Origin: Candidatus Calditenuis fumarioli
GTDB lineage: Archaea; Thermoproteota; Nitrososphaeria_A; Caldarchaeales; Calditenuaceae
Direction: 5' to 3'
DNA length: 24,000 bases
Assembly: GCA_030059665.1 (NCBI GenBank)
Contig: JANVYR010000002.1
Location: 480,617-504,616, forward strand
Shown: positions 6,554-12,863 of the stretch, in pieces
Layout: the number at the start of each line of letters is the position of its first letter
Position numbering within the stretch: position 1 is the first letter of the stretch
The notes under the pieces: model-generated
What the model was told of the DNA's origin: nothing
Database searches by the model: none
What the model saw: the letters and a program-made list of their open reading frames with translations, nothing else
Program-made: the position numbers and the translations under genes

Positions 6554-6602
6554 CGGGCAACGACACTTTCCAGCTAACCACTTGGCTCAATCTCAAGGCG
6601 CG

Positions 6603-9600
6603 CTAATTCTTCGTTAATGCCCCATTAGCCACCGCCTCCCTGATGTGCATCAGGACGTCTTCAATCACGCCCTCGGGGTTGATCCACCACTCGCTCGACC
6701 AGATCCTGTATATCCTCCAACCCAATCTCTCGAGGTGTCTCTGCCTGATCCAGTCCCTCTCCCGAGCTGTCCTGTGACTGTGGTACAGCCTTCCGTCGCA
6801 CTCTATCCCCAAGATGAACCGGCCGTTATGCAAGACTCCTATGTCGATCCTGTACCTTCCCACCCCGACCTGAGGGACGAGTTCCACCTCTTTGTTCAAT
6901 CCCTCATTGGTCAGGGCCGCCTGCAGACGTTTGAAGACCTCCTCCTCAAAGGGCGAGTCGAAAGGCTCTATGTGTGGATGTGAAGCTCCTCCCCTTTCGG
7001 CGTACTCCAAAAAGTCCCTCAGGACCCTTACGCCACGCGGGTCGTTGTCGTTAACCCTGATCATGTCGTATTTCATTGACGAGACGACCCATAGCATCTT
7101 CCTGGCTCTGGATATCAGGACGTTGATGCGTCTCTCTCCGCCTTCATTATTGATCGGCCCGAACGTCTTGCGCACCACTCCTTCGACCGGTCCGTAGGTC
7201 ATGCTGATTATCACGAGGTCTGCCTCCCTTCCCTGCACCGTCTCCAAATTCCTGACCAGCAGCCTGCCGTCCTCTTCCATCTCATCGATCAGATCGGCGA
7301 CTTCCCTCTCGCGATAGGGTAATGGAACGGTCAGGTGCTTCGCGTACCTGAAGGCCCTGAGCCTTTCCCTGTCCATGGGGCCCCTCCGATCAGATTGGGA
7401 TTGTGCCTTGTAGTCCTCGATGAGACCCTTTATTGCGTCCTGCTGCCTCTCGTTCATCGCCACTATCAGGATGCTCTTGTATTCCTTCGATTTCACCGCC
7501 TCGATGAGCCGCCAAAGAACTACTGCTGCCTCGTTCGGATTTACACCGGTTTTCGATATGTAGTTGCCGTTTTCGACGAAGAAGAACCGCACCCTCCTGT
7601 CATTAGGATCTGCTGAGGGATACACCACCAGACGGTTGTCGTAAAAATAAGCGTTGGAGAACGCGATGAGCGATTCGTGCTCTCCTCTGTAGTACCACCT
7701 GAGCCACTCCTCGCCGAAGACCCTGAAACCTGAAGAGTTGGTGTTGAGACATGCCTCCAGCAGACCCTCGGGAGTTTCGATTTCCTCGCCCTCCTCGTCC
7801 TCCTGCTGCTCGATCCTTCTCGTGAAGTAGTCCGTGGGTGGCATCTGCTGCTCGTCGCCGACTACTATGACCTGACGGCCTCTCGCTATTGCGGGGAGTG
7901 CTCGCTCCGTTTGCACCTGTGACGCCTCGTCGAAGACCACCACGTCGAAGAGCTGACCCTTGAGACCCCTCAGCAGCGTGGATACCATAAGAGGAGTCAT
8001 GATCAGGACGGGTTTGACCAGCAGTATCTCGTTTAAGTGGTCACGCATGATGCGGACGAGGGGGCGCCTCCTTCTGATCTTGAGCTGGTGGGCTGCGAGT
8101 TCCCTTAGCCTCATTATTGGACCTTTGAATAGCCGCGGACCACCGGGCAACGTTCTAAGCCCTAAGTTCAGTCTGATGGTGTGGATGACCTTGCTCCTCA
8201 ACGCGAGCGCTGCCAGCGCCACACTTCGGCCTTCTCCTAAGCGCTGCCCATCTCCATGTGTGTAGAGGCCATCGTAGTAACCGATGAGCTTCTGCATCGC
8301 TCCCTTAGGGCCCTCACGCACCTCGCTCAGCAGGCTTACGAGTGCCCTCCTCAGCTTATTACCCGACCGCTCGTAAGCGACGATAGATTCCCAGACCTCC
8401 GTGAGCTCGTCGAACGAACCGAAATTCTCAAGCAGTCTGTCAACGAAGCGCGAAAATTCCCGGTCGGCGATAACCCCTGCCAAGTCTAGGAGACGCTGAA
8501 GCTGAATCCCGAAGCTATCGCTTTCAGCCAGATCTTCTAGCACTATGACTGTGCGGTCGAGCAGCTCGGGGAGTACCAAATCCTTCCGGACGGCTTCCGC
8601 GTCAATAAGCCACTGCAGAAATCCACGCAGATCGCCTAGTCTCTTAGCGAGGCCCTGCAGGTCCAGCTCGGTATCGAAGAACTGCTGGGCGTACGCGAGC
8701 AATTCGTCCTCACCATCTGGAGATGGTTCGAATCCTAAAGCTTCGAGAGCGCGCTCACGACCATCAAGCAGTCTCCGCAGAGCCCTTTCTAGTTCTATTG
8801 TTGGCATCTTGTCTACTGCATGTCCCAGGAGCTGCCTGAGCTCGTTCACAAGTTCCTCCCTTAGATTCGAGGCATACTCGAGTTCGGAGAGCGTTCTATC
8901 CCTCTGGTAGTAGAGCTGACGTTTGATCTCTTTACGAGCGGTATCCGGTTCTATGCCGTACCTCCTCAGCTCGTGGGCCCACTGAGCGAGATGCCTGTGT
9001 CCCAGTAAAATCGTCTTGATTCTCGAGATCAGCCCCCGGGGGAAGAGCCTCATCATCAACTCATCTATGTCTTTCACCTCTTGGCTGAGATGATCGATCT
9101 TTCCATCCAACTCGAGGATCTGACGTGTGAGCTCCAGAGCGCGCTGCAACTTTCGTATGCTCAGCTTCACTTTCAGACCGTCCGTCACAACGTTCAGCAG
9201 CTTCACGCATTCACCGACACTCCTTTGGCCTTGAAGCCAGTTTAACAACCTCATTGATGAGGCGAGGTAACTTATCGCAAGAGACAGCTCCTCAGCGCTA
9301 GGATTCTGCTCCAGCCCGAGCCTGCTTCGGAGCCAGGCGACCGTCTGAAACAATGCGGGATCTAGGGTTCTCTGGCCTGTCTCTTCCCTTAGCTCAAAGG
9401 CGCTGAGTATCGCAGCGGAGTACTTCTGTTCTTCGAACCATCTGCGTACCGTATCCCTACCATGCTCCGCGAGAAGCTGCCGTAAAACCTGAACCTTTTC
9501 ACGCTTCTCCAGTAGCGCCTTGCTAGCGATTGCGAGGTCGTGTCTCATCTCGTTGCCTGAGACCAGGGCCAGATACTCCGAGTAGCGACCGTAGACGTTC

Positions 9601-12831: not shown

Positions 12832-12836
12832 CACGA
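12807..12836. repeat. Direct repeat copy 2 (candidate att site)
   Basis: Identical over 25 nt to 11205-11229, then C+CACGA versus T+CACGA-type continuation (one indel). The GC-rich flank to its right contains CTTTAATC about 24 nt upstream of the fragment's position 1, a possible original tRNA promoter. Confidence 0.9.
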
Positions 12837-12863
12837 ATTTCAACGCGCCGCTGGATTAAAGGA

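Follow-up and report, generated by a model that had tools for sequence, protein, structure and literature searches.

The origin of archaeal tRNA introns that lie at odd positions, and of related introns shared across different tRNAs, has been a question since 2008–2010. Such sharing in Thermoproteales has been called 'intron transposition' (Fujishima et al., 2010, as cited in PMC4090602 and bioRxiv 10.64898/2026.10.13.758758), and an October 2026 preprint still treats the route by which tRNA introns arrive as open (bioRxiv 10.64898/2026.10.13.758758). At the gene for tRNA-Thr(GGU) in Caldiarchaeum subterraneum, a 5' fragment of the gene, an insertion of 1.87 kb that contains an 813-bp ORF, and an intron between positions 24/25 have been described (Sugahara et al., 2012, PMC3293823). 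The Caldiarchaeum element is present in multiple copies in its genome and was put forward as a way in which introns are gained; its ORF was predicted to encode a DNA-binding or recombining protein, and no guide RNA and no link to IS110 or Tas proteins were given (PMC3293823). Two RNA-guided systems also bear on the locus described here, namely the IS110 element IS621, whose target-loop polarity as published is that of the guides reported below (PMC11208160), and the TIGR systems, whose spacers are likewise 9 nt long (PMC12045711). This study concerns a 24,000-nt stretch of DNA from Candidatus Calditenuis fumarioli (the window), in which two unrelated acquisitions are likely to have met at the tRNA-Lys(UUU) gene, one a defence-type helicase gene and the other an apparently RNA-guided element that rebuilds the tRNA with an intron.

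The low-GC stretch and its helicase gene

A first-pass annotation of the window had described positions 6554–12837 as a compositionally deviant accessory island organised around a tRNA-Lys gene, and had taken it for the classic signature of a horizontally acquired island with at least two acquisition events. The features of this region are as follows.

6603..10925, minus strand: helicase-nuclease gene, 1440 aa, with DUF4011, SF1 helicase and MTES_1575/DUF559 nuclease domains (Pfam)
11104-11106, minus strand: encoded CCA of tRNA-Lys
11107..11229, minus strand: live tRNA-Lys(UUU) gene (Rfam tRNA, 40.6 bits)
11107-11142, minus strand: tRNA-Lys exon 3
11143-11161, minus strand: tRNA-Lys canonical intron, after position 37
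11162-11174, minus strand: tRNA-Lys exon 2
11175-11204, minus strand: tRNA-Lys D-arm intron, 30 nt
11205-11229, minus strand: tRNA-Lys exon 1
11175..12799, minus strand: insertion sequence of ~1.6 kb, as far as its extent can be inferred, with left end 12799 and right end 11175
11255..11264, minus strand: TTTAAATA box, read from the sequence as an element-supplied promoter, ~30 nt upstream of where the live tRNA begins
11380..11404, minus strand: C-rich then T-rich motif that closes the conserved non-coding block
11434..11544, minus strand: predicted conserved stem-loop RNA of ~110 nt, directly after the ORF313 stop, with two guides in its internal loop
11462-11470, minus strand: guide 2, 9 nt, antisense to tRNA nt 29-37
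11505-11513, minus strand: guide 1, 9 nt, in the same sense as tRNA nt 21-29
11549..12490, minus strand: ORF313, with RuvC, coiled-coil and a Nop/Tnp-like fold as in IS110 recombinases and TasR
12800..12831, minus strand: displaced original tRNA 5' part (nt 1-25 plus the 7-nt crossover copy)
12853..12862, minus strand: TTTAAT-like box read upstream of the displaced tRNA 5' part

The drop in composition was borne out by full counts, with GC contents of 0.65 in both flanks (range 0.65–0.67; 0.665 in the ligase gene and 0.647 in the ORF at 12864–13766), 0.567 in the helicase ORF at 6603–10925(-) and 0.479 in the part that lies right of the tRNA (11230–12806). The shift in codon choice from AGG to AGA held as well: GC3 fell from 0.88–0.93 in four flanking genes to 0.69 in the helicase gene and 0.61 in the ORF at 11549–12490, and AGG:AGA counts were 44:3 in the ligase gene, 68:25 in the helicase gene and 10:15 in ORF313. 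Against the 1.567-Mb genome (mean GC 0.623), a GC content as low or lower was seen in 7.3% of segments as long as the helicase gene, in 1.2% of those as long as the right part and in 4.3% of those as long as the full 6.3 kb. Although real, the drop is not a singular feature, given that about 64 further low-GC patches occur in the genome, and the island as such is an ordinary member of that set.

The 1440-aa gene on the left of the tRNA is present as reported. Among PADLOC models, which carry no cut-off, it matched PDC-S37 at 3.8e-181 and Hhe at 4.6e-106, while its scores with the NCBIfam models ProA (599.8 bits) and Hhe (509.5 bits) lay under the curated cut-offs of 1500 and 2000, respectively. 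Its nearest relatives share 44–46% identity across a third of its length. Judged from its sequence, the protein is a relative of the Hhe, PDC-S37 and ProA defence candidates, with a like domain order and likewise in a stand-alone gene; it differs in scoring far below the curated cut-offs of Hhe and ProA and in having an archaeon as its host. A role in defence against foreign DNA is likely.

Searches of 75 further genomes of the order revealed no homologue of the helicase (E<=1e-10), and the tRNA site of a genome of the same genus (G005) lacks the insertion to the right; the block is accessory as well as foreign in composition. The helicase gene was acquired horizontally and independently of the insertion sequence, in keeping with the earlier claim of at least two separate acquisitions. 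The comparison of the locus with related genomes, which had been suggested as a check, succeeded in part: it yielded the empty tRNA site in G005 but no clean presence/absence alignment, which cannot be made since the order of genes in both relatives is broken at precisely the 3' end of the tRNA. In G002, other genes follow the ligase gene.

Anatomy of the insertion sequence and its tRNA gene

The tRNA-Lys gene proved to have a UUU anticodon, found in this gene only among the 43 tRNA genes examined in the genome, and two introns. ARAGORN found nothing in the region, and the exon and intron limits were set from the intron-less G005 orthologue (L001:6897-6992), whose CCA, in contrast to that of the present gene, is not encoded. 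The D-arm intron is presumed to be spliced out, given that the genome's only tRNA-Lys(UUU) gene carries it; its minimum-energy fold did not show a bulge-helix-bulge splice motif, being a plain 14-bp hairpin that takes in the last three bases of exon 1 and lacks clear bulges.

What the first-pass annotation took for a duplicated tRNA 5' end is the 5' part of the original gene, now displaced. Its nt 1–25 (12807–12831) match the live gene's own at 25 of 25 positions, forming an exact direct repeat with 11205–11229, and they adjoin a 7-nt crossover copy (12800–12806, CGGCCGG) that differs at two of seven positions from its counterpart in the live gene (11168–11174, CGACGGG). The TTTAAT-like box at 12853..12862 is probably the original tRNA promoter, and boxes equivalent to TTTAAATA also occur in copies B and C of the element.

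The small single-ORF insertion is real, and the same genome has three more copies and one fragment. The limits of the element were drawn from the empty site in G005, an alignment of three close copies, the junctions in five copies and the paralogues of the same genome. From left to right it comprises the left end, ORF313, the guide RNA, the putative T-rich stop, the promoter, tRNA nt 1–24/25 and a 30-nt terminal hairpin, which is the present D-arm intron. In G005, an orthologue of orf300 stands beside an intact tRNA-Lys(UUU) gene that has neither the element nor the D-arm intron. The three close copies in the genome each lie immediately 5' of a different single-copy tRNA gene (Lys-UUU, Asn-GUU and Thr-GGU), and all three of these tRNAs have a related hairpin intron at an identical D-arm position; the fourth copy is distant from them. 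Related introns at this position also occur in the tRNAs of other copies, namely Arg-CCU (L042), Arg-GCG (L011) and Met (L018).

Stranded 5' parts stop 1–4 nt inside the right target in copies GB, L013, L018 and L042, where the repeats at the two element ends are 6–7 bp long. The rebuilt tRNAs in L011, L018 and L042 combine a generic D-arm unlike the native one with the acceptor strand of the target, a sequence pattern indicating that the tRNA 5' part travels with the element. Up to 20–30 matches per genome were found for the family, at many different sites. Its members were confined to one archaeal order in the genomes sampled: a profile of the 34-sequence family alignment A2 gave no matches beyond the order of the window among 401 genomes of the phylum, and the family accounts for 278 cluster representatives among 1.84 billion proteins. 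The element is an insertion sequence of a rare archaeal family.

The ORF313 protein and the stem-loop RNA

Sequence searches did not join ORF313 to IS110. Pfam gave no hit for ORF313 at E<=10 and only weak matches to PF01548 in 2 of the 34 family members (best E 0.01); a PF01548 search of this genome found nothing, a profile search of PDB sequences reached IS621 at E 1.1, and hhalign comparison with six archaeal IS110 proteins gave E 0.11. An AlphaFold model of a paralogue (P0002:48-309), for which A2 served as input, had a pLDDT of 95.4 and a pTM of 0.90. With this paralogue model, Foldseek returned ISCro4, TasR and IS621 (E 7e-6 to 7e-4) as the only significant PDB matches, at full length, and VIA-align gave Z scores of 14.4, 12.7 and 12.5 over 241–252 residues, the best structural match being TasR (9mty_A; Z 14.4 over 241 residues), followed by IS621 and ISCro4 (Z 12.5–12.7 over 248–252 residues). 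TasH matched the C-terminal half of the paralogue model at Z 10–11, and this half of the protein resembles Nop56/58 and Prp31. Neighbours in the ESM Atlas included clusters with PF02371/PF01548 (TM 0.78). On the strength of the model, ORF313 belongs structurally to the IS110-recombinase/TasR/Nop5 superfamily.

Invariant positions of the family include aspartates and a K-[ST]-x-x-x-D motif comparable to the KTDxxDA motif of IS110. In A2, no conserved Ser follows the Y-x-G-L motif, a nearly invariant Tyr occupying that place, and the non-significant hhalign alignment has a gap opposite the IS110 QSG. The window's own ORF313 lacks eight residues, among them the family's nearly invariant Gly and Tyr, and may therefore be inactive.

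A structured block follows each family ORF examined. In the consensus fold (alignment A3), 92.3% of cells were paired, compared with 34–48% when the partners were slid, and five pairs of the stem were changed on both sides. More distant subfamilies keep this architecture with quite different stem sequences. A search of Rfam with the stem-loop RNA gave no family match and no snoRNA match. The CCAGCC..CTCCCC..TTTTT motif that closes the block is kept across the family and may serve as the transcript stop.

The guides vary between copies, and among the 14 tRNA-type copies examined they match the neighbouring tRNA in 12; the family also has a non-tRNA subfamily. The guides of the window copy agree with the intron-less tRNA-Lys gene in 17 of 17 nt, on opposite strands; those of the other two close copies match their adjacent tRNAs with one mismatch in 17 each, and those of two copies from another genome match the tRNA-Arg genes of the window's genome with 0 and 1 mismatches in 18, compared with a minimum of 3 (mode 6) for shuffled guides. 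The right-target 9-mer occurs within the tRNA anticodon loop 240–385 nt past the stop codon, exactly in 11 of the 14 copies and with a single mismatch in one more; by our own arithmetic the chance expectation is ~0.0015 per copy. The left target is split 4–5 nt before the junction by an insert of ~14–30 nt (25–30 nt in most copies). The target is DNA, because guide 1 has the sense of the tRNA and cannot pair with it as RNA, and the match of guide 2 in the window takes in one nucleotide of the canonical intron. Inspected by eye, neither the non-coding block 3' of the ORF nor the sequence upstream of it revealed a second (donor) loop with a match to the element's own ends, and none of the 42 copies examined adjoined an array of units.

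Proposed mechanism, alternatives and known systems

The tRNA gene is central to this locus since the small insertion sequence targets it specifically, apparently by means of its own guide RNA. In the preferred reading, the stem-loop RNA would be expressed and would direct the element into an intron-less tRNA gene at its anticodon-stem region, in a reaction whose chemistry may be that of a recombinase or a nuclease. Insertion would take place with a 6–7-bp repeated crossover region at tRNA positions 25/26–31. Because insertion alone would destroy an essential single-copy tRNA, the right end of the element carries a promoter, tRNA nt 1–24 and a 25–30-nt hairpin, and this end together with the remaining gene would restore a functional tRNA with the hairpin as its D-arm intron, the original 5' part being stranded at the left end of the element. 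Neither product would be open to renewed targeting, since the target of the left guide is interrupted by the intron and the right target is missing from the stranded part. If the two 25-nt copies of exon 1 recombined, the element would be lost and the intron would stay behind, which may be a route to intron gain.

Tentatively, and as a reading that we favour less than the insertion model itself, the family may be a vehicle of intron gain, or 'intron transposition', in thermophilic archaea, in which an insertion sequence guided by RNA breaks and rebuilds tRNA genes and its end hairpin becomes an intron. As part of the same reading, the family may moreover be a missing link that connects TIGR-Tas with IS110 elements of the two-loop type, having one tigRNA-like guide unit per mobile element within the domain that gave rise to Nop5 and C/D RNAs, and may use Tyr in place of Ser.

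The alternative that fares best, though we think it unlikely, accepts the targeting but holds that a TasR-like nuclease cuts intron-less alleles, into which the intron-protected allele with the element is then copied by homologous repair of the break (homing), new sites being rare. It would account for TasR being the best structural match (Z 14.4), for a single RNA unit with two 9-nt spacers, which resembles a tigRNA more than the two-loop bridge RNA, for no conserved Ser having been found at the IS110 'SG' position and for both insertion products being without an intact target; the right junction at 24|25 is also where, by our own calculation from the published rule (PMC12045711), a TasR-type bottom-strand cut is expected. 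However, the left junctions, at 31–33, do not agree with the matching top-strand cut at 34|35, and the 20–30 matches per genome at many sites exceed what homing alone would lead one to expect. The K-[ST]-x-x-x-D and Y-x-G-L motifs align with IS110, although non-significantly, and the ESM Atlas neighbours are of IS110 type.

It is improbable that the element is a real tRNA-specific one whose protein reads DNA directly or by homology, with the 'guides' as leftover attachment-site DNA that has no role as RNA. While expression of the stem-loop RNA is an inference and the long tRNA-identical DNA on the element (nt 1–24) could supply homology, the segments sit at fixed places on both strands of the internal loop of a covarying stem-loop, and they are always 9 nt long, one sense and one antisense, a layout that no simple recombination product yields. 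They also follow the target while the scaffold stays constant, and the only structural relatives of the protein are RNA-guided enzymes.

Still less probable is the classic tRNA-anchored island, in which one or more integrase-carrying elements entered the tRNA-Lys gene and left the helicase gene, the repeat and the small ORF as remains. Such an island would present a low GC content, a gene of defence type, a tRNA and a partial copy of that tRNA, and the break in gene order at the tRNA 3' end, together with a CCA encoded here and not in G005, could be the trace of an old integration event on the side of the helicase. Yet this part of the first-pass annotation did not hold up: when the only large ORFs of 6554–12837, helicase and ORF313, were scanned with Pfam and NCBIfam, neither matched an integrase, and no tRNA-derived repeats bracket the helicase gene. 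The sole such repeat is of the 5' part and brackets the 1.6-kb element, and a copy of the tRNA-Lys 3' end, for which a search at the left boundary had been suggested, was absent with up to five mismatches from 6554–6602 and from the whole window. Moreover, the family of the small ORF is multi-copy and stands at many different tRNAs with matching guides.

That the stem-loop is a C/D-box-like small RNA guiding 2'-O-methylation of the tRNA anticodon loop is scarcely credible, for although guide 2 is antisense to that loop, the C-terminal half of the protein is like Nop56/58 and Prp31 and GAUGA and CUGA-like motifs occur in the copies of this genome, guide 1 in tRNA sense could not pair with the tRNA, the guide 2 match includes a canonical-intron nucleotide, the RNA always accompanies a multi-copy ORF at insertion junctions, and Rfam gave no snoRNA match.

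The insertion model offers a testable mechanism of intron gain, in which a guide RNA picks the tRNA gene, the end of the element turns into the intron and the intron shields the gene, and the element would be a direct instance of the idea that introns guard tRNA genes from mobile elements. With a protein of ~260–310 aa and an RNA of ~110 nt, it would constitute a compact RNA-guided system with programmable recognition of 9 + 9 nt from hyperthermophiles, which, not being joined to IS110 by sequence, is relevant to the evolution of IS110, TIGR-Tas and Nop5 and possibly to genome-engineering tools.

Like the IS110 elements IS621 and ISCro4, the element has a single ORF with RuvC, coiled-coil and a Tnp/Nop-like fold, it is multi-copy and site-specific, and its left end adjoins the left target. 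A structured RNA is found 3' of the ORF, in the non-coding end of the element, an arrangement shared with the IS1111 group, and its two guides have the polarity of the target loop of the IS110 bridge RNA. It differs from IS110 in that its protein family lacks significant sequence similarity and an evident counterpart of the conserved Ser ('SG' motif). The bridge RNA has two loops, compared with the one guide loop found here, and its right guide is 4–7 nt long, compared with 9 nt; the core of IS621 is 2 nt, whereas the repeated crossover region is 6–7 bp. The right end of the element also sets it apart, in that it carries a promoter, the 5' part of a tRNA and a hairpin that forms an intron.

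The Nop-like and RuvC protein fold is common to the element and TasR, and, as in TIGR-Tas, two 9-nt spacers with a short stem-loop between them match opposite strands of adjacent DNA. TIGR-Tas, however, forms an array with alternating repeats, whereas each copy of the element has one unit, which lies within a multi-copy insertion sequence and whose spacers match its own insertion site.

With the Caldiarchaeum element, compared by architecture alone, the present one shares the 5' fragment, an insertion of 1.6–1.9 kb, one ORF of ~270–310 aa and a tRNA with a 24/25 intron; this architecture has been known without a mechanism since 2012 in another archaeon (PMC3293823), and a proposed mechanism is what is added here. 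As in the 'intron transposition' of Thermoproteales, related introns occur at one non-canonical position in different tRNA types; the difference from that account is that the shared intron is here the physical end of a mobile element, which would supply the mechanism.

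Base composition of the block and the helicase gene

The low-GC block at 6554-12837 appears to derive from at least two separate acquisition events, as the first-pass annotation had proposed, with a lone gene in its left half and a multi-copy element in its right half. The classic tRNA-anchored island in which that annotation placed these features is too generic a model for a lone helicase gene and a putative tRNA-targeting element. The drop in GC across the block is real. In the source genome (1.567 Mb, 3 contigs, GC 62.3%), where the window occupies C2:480617-504616, sliding-window GC is 0.62-0.69 up to 6500, 0.53-0.61 over 6500-11000, 0.46-0.51 over 11000-12750 and 0.62-0.68 thereafter. 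The counts of AGG/AGA, AAG/AAA and ATA codons shift as previously described, and third-position GC, which is 0.88-0.93 in four flanking genes, is reduced in the two ORFs of the block.

Base composition of features in and around the block
Ligase gene: GC 0.665
6603-10925, minus strand, helicase ORF: GC 0.567, third-position GC 0.69
11230-12806, segment right of the tRNA gene: GC 0.479
11549-12490, minus strand, ORF313: third-position GC 0.61
12864-13766, minus strand, flanking ORF: GC 0.647

Genome-wide, the share of equally long windows whose GC is as low or lower is 7.3% for the helicase gene, 1.2% for the right part and 4.3% for the whole block. The block is compositionally deviant, yet it is one among many such patches, because approximately 64 comparable ones occur in this genome; the genome-wide check that had been suggested thus upheld the deviation without setting the block apart. 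Two large low-GC islands lie just left of the window (C2:437500-459500 and C2:467000-477500; minimum GC 0.39-0.42), and a second dip within it (0.54-0.56 at 16200-16900) falls inside a minus-strand ORF (15678-16835) whose homologue in the congeneric relative G005 covers the C-terminal 220 residues only, with 55% identity. As listed, the minus-strand ORF at 12864-13766 overlaps the plus-strand UPF0047 gene (13705-14271) head to head by 62 nt (13705-13766); the true start codons of both probably lie further inward.

The helicase ORF encodes DUF4011, a split SF1 helicase (AAA_11, AAA_12) and a C-terminal MTES_1575/DUF559 nuclease domain. PADLOC matched it to PDC-S37 (3.8e-181) and Hhe (4.6e-106), while the NCBIfam matches, ProA and Hhe, both fell far under their curated cut-offs. 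No homologue was found at E<=1e-10 in 75 other genomes of the order, and DNA comparison with 30 relatives gave no match. Its closest relatives are metagenomic proteins with 44-46% identity across one third of the length, followed by bacterial DUF4011/DUF3320 proteins. No bracketing repeats were found around the gene, and the second tRNA-Lys 3' end that was to be sought at the left boundary does not occur within the window. These comparisons point to a lone, horizontally acquired gene of putative defence type.

The tRNA-Lys gene and its genomic context

The tRNA gene noted within the block was recovered by an Rfam search of the window (11229..11107, minus strand), although the whole-genome Rfam search missed the same gene and ARAGORN, which reported no tRNA in the window, missed the two-intron tRNA-Lys at 11107-11229. 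In G005, an intact tRNA-Lys(UUU) gene (locus L001, 6897-6992) with the canonical intron only comes after the MFS, UPF0047 and orf300 orthologues, and comparison with this gene set the exon and intron limits of the window gene.

Structure of the window tRNA-Lys gene (minus strand)
Exon 1: 25 nt
11175-11204: D-arm insert, 30 nt, folding as an 11-14-bp hairpin
Exon 2: 13 nt, followed by the 19-nt canonical intron
Exon 3: 36 nt, followed by an encoded CCA (11104-11106)

The duplicated tRNA 5' end is a 25-nt exact direct repeat (11205-11229 and 12807-12831). Among 43 tRNA genes examined in the genome, the window tRNA-Lys alone has a UUU anticodon, and as the sole such tRNA it would have to work. 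Derivation of the stranded 5' part, the displaced original 5' end, from tRNA-Lys(CUU) was considered, given a match of 33/34 nt up to U33, and was rejected because tRNA-Lys(UUU) occupies this position in G005.

Gene order 3' of tRNA-Lys differs in each of the source genome, G005 and a second relative, G002, and the break coincides exactly with the tRNA 3' end (window 11104-11106; L001:6992-7000). In G005, this end is followed by a homologue of the gene at the left edge of the window. In G002, tRNA-Glu(CUC) and genes located on contig 1 of the source genome come after the block from g481 to the ligase gene. No simple inversion or insertion could be reconstructed from the two relatives to yield the ancestral order. 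The CCA is encoded after tRNA-Lys in the source genome and not in G005, and tRNA-Glu(CUC), which directly follows the ligase gene in G002, lies 1.2 kb left of the window in the source genome. Elsewhere on the same contig, an isolated tRNA 3' half (C2:281321-281361) adjoins a low-GC patch. It runs from the 3' strand of the anticodon stem to the discriminator base, has an Arg-type T-arm and belongs to none of the detected tRNA genes; it may be the relic of an attachment site or one half of a split tRNA.

An insertion sequence family with a putative guide RNA

The right half of the block appears to belong to a rare insertion sequence family that had not been characterised before. The source genome contains three close copies, each directly 5' of a tRNA gene (Lys-UUU, Asn-GUU or Thr-GGU), and the D-arms of these three tRNA genes contain related hairpin inserts at the identical position. 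Copy C, one of the two close paralogues, adjoins a 19-kb low-GC island (C1:756500-775500).

Further copies of the family in the source genome
C1:756753-757694: ORF313 paralogue, 66% identity
C1:627173-627946: ORF313 paralogue, 72% identity
C1:324985-325803: distant intact fourth copy (L051), whose own stem-loop RNA is of another subtype
C2:56477-56732: 250-nt fragment of a further copy

A word-based homologue search returned only paralogues from the source genome itself, and six-frame genome searches were needed to reveal the wider family, which is present in 30/76 genomes of the order at up to 30 matches each. A profile search detected it in 30/401 genomes of the phylum, all 30 within this order, and matched only 278 of 1.84 billion cluster representatives at E<=0.001. 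The window stretch itself is contained in hot-spring metagenomes of 11 studies (2016 to 2025), with no RNA dataset listed among its carriers. Contigs of four hot-spring/sediment runs span the helicase gene, tRNA and element with 0-1 differences; no empty-site form was found in them, and the candidate empty-site joints in metagenome contigs all proved to be other tRNA genes, including the tRNA-Arg(UCU) of the source genome itself.

In every copy examined, a conserved block directly follows the stop codon, consisting of a long outer stem, a short GCA/UGC stem, an internal loop and an inner hairpin, with a small hairpin and a C-rich, T-rich end in its 3' part. In 16 sequences, 92.3% of the cells of the consensus fold are paired, versus 34-48% with slid partners, and five pairs show changes on both sides. 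Distant subfamilies keep this RNA design with unrelated stem sequences. No Rfam match to this putative guide RNA was obtained, even at E<=5. Each strand of the internal loop contains one 9-nt segment that varies between copies. Two copies in one genome (L033 and L034, G024:C1) are 96% identical overall and differ in their guide segments and inner hairpins, as if the guide module had been exchanged as a cassette.

The variable segments correspond to tRNA genes. In the window copy, segment 1 (11505-11513) equals nt 21-29 of tRNA-Lys in the same sense and segment 2 (11462-11470) corresponds to nt 29-37 in reverse complement, the pair matching 17/17 nt of the intron-less tRNA-Lys gene as in G005. 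Because segment 1 is in the same sense and the match of segment 2 reaches into the canonical intron by one nucleotide, the partner would be DNA, not the tRNA itself. Copies B and C each agree with their own tRNA at 16/17 nt, and two copies from another genome match tRNA-Arg(CCU) and tRNA-Arg(GCG) of the source genome at 18/18 and 17/18 nt; letter-shuffled guides reached 3 mismatches at best, with a mode of 6. Of 14 tRNA-type copies examined, 11 have the exact right-hand 9-mer within a tRNA anticodon loop 240-385 nt downstream and one more has it with a single mismatch, compared with our calculated chance expectation of ~0.0015 per copy. Targets include Lys, Asn, Thr, Arg (two anticodons), Met, Leu (two anticodons) and Tyr. 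These matches suggest that a single two-spacer putative guide RNA directs the family at tRNA genes. In a non-tRNA subfamily (G024), comparison of guides with flanks gave one 9/9 match (L036) and one match in an unexpected orientation (L034).

The junctions indicate how the element would be positioned in its target. Rebuilt tRNAs carry the insert (~14-30 nt, mostly 25-30 nt) 4-5 nt before the junction of the target halves, and the left target is therefore split. Copies GB, L013, L018 and L042 have a stranded intron-less tRNA 5' part upstream of the ORF, ending 1-4 nt into the right target. From the junction positions on the two sides, the region common to both element ends is 6-7 bp (tRNA positions 25/26-31). 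In the window copy, its two versions (CGGCCGG and CGACGGG) differ at 2 positions, the left one being identical to the stem of tRNA-Lys(CUU) and tRNA-Met, and the element would extend on the minus strand from 12799, just after the left shared copy, to 11175, the end of the putative intron. The rebuilt genes at L011, L018 and L042 combine a generic D-arm (GCTC..GAGC), unlike the native one, with the target's acceptor strand, and their terminal hairpins are alike despite different targets (Arg-GCG, Met and Arg-CCU, respectively). This suggests that the tRNA 5' part travels with the element, which would thus bring its own repair cassette and leave a D-arm intron behind.

Inserts also occur apart from the element. 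The tRNA-Lys(CUU) gene of G015 (L059, G015:C5:~95110-95215) has a hairpin insert in the D-arm right after GAG, with no family ORF in 2.6 kb upstream, and probably represents the 'intron-only' state expected after element loss; recombination between the two exon-1 copies would generate exactly such genes. A tRNA-Arg(UCG)-like gene of the source genome (C2:~429497-429600, minus strand), missed by the whole-genome Rfam search, likewise has an insert in its D-arm, with no element of the family within 2 kb. At L013 (G040:C9), the stretch ~80-330 nt upstream of the ORF, just ahead of the current left end, contains the decayed right end of an older element (a T-stretch and a remnant of the guide RNA), a promoter and an intron-less tRNA-Leu 5' part, an arrangement that would indicate serial insertions at one tRNA.

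The family protein and related systems

Scans of ORF313 with Pfam, NCBIfam and PADLOC gave no family match. Across a 34-sequence alignment, Asp, Lys and Asp are invariant within the D-V-H, Y-V-D and K-[ST]-x-x-x-D motifs, and a Gly and a Tyr that follow a Y-x-G-L motif are nearly so. The window copy lacks eight residues, including the conserved Gly and Tyr, and may rely on another copy. An AlphaFold model of the copy C protein from this alignment reached pLDDT 95.4 and pTM 0.90 (one from 3 sequences, at pLDDT 54.6, was discarded), and its significant Foldseek matches in the PDB were the ISCro4 and IS621 bridge recombinases and TIGR-TasR only. VIA-align aligned 241-252 of 262 residues with Z scores of 14.4 for TasR, 12.7 for IS621 and 12.5 for ISCro4, and confined the match of TasH, Prp31 and Nop56/58 to the C-terminal half. 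ESM Atlas neighbours were clusters of archaeal hypothetical proteins, followed by PF02371/PF01548 clusters (TM 0.78). Sequence comparisons were insignificant: PF01548 matched 2/34 members (best E 0.01), the profile met IS621 among PDB sequences at E 1.1, and hhalign against six archaeal IS110 proteins gave E 0.11. This last alignment is collinear, placing K-S-D-x-x-D over K-T-D-x-x-D and Y-x-G-L over W-A-G-L, with a gap facing the catalytic QSG of IS110. The modelled fold thus suggests a relationship of the family to both IS110 and TasR.

The protein may be a recombinase or, less probably, a TasR-like RNA-guided nuclease; the cut geometry of TasR fits the right junction but does not fit the left one. 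The position of the RNA 3' of the ORF has its counterpart in IS1111-group elements (PMC11208160). The arrangement of 9 + 9 nt with a short stem-loop between them equals one tigRNA unit of TIGR-Tas, and a published account treats bridge RNAs as two fused tigRNA-type units (PMC12045711). Only one such unit was found in the family RNA, and a search for a second, donor-binding loop or RNA complementarity to the element ends yielded only one 5-nt match in a single copy.

A full-text search found no literature linking these elements to bridge RNAs or TIGR-Tas. A survey in which iterative HMM searches recovered 662 archaeal IS110 recombinases makes no mention of tRNA, and a preprint of October 2026 regards the route of tRNA intron arrival as still open. 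A close precedent is the Caldiarchaeum tRNA-Thr(GGU) gene, in which a 5' fragment is accompanied by a 1,868-bp insertion that reaches nt 27, includes an intron at 24/25 and an 813-bp ORF, and occurs in 6-7 copies (Sugahara et al., 2012; PMC3293823). That study identified neither an RNA guide nor protein kinship and proposed intron gain through a mobile element; the architecture of its insertion is the same as that of the window element.
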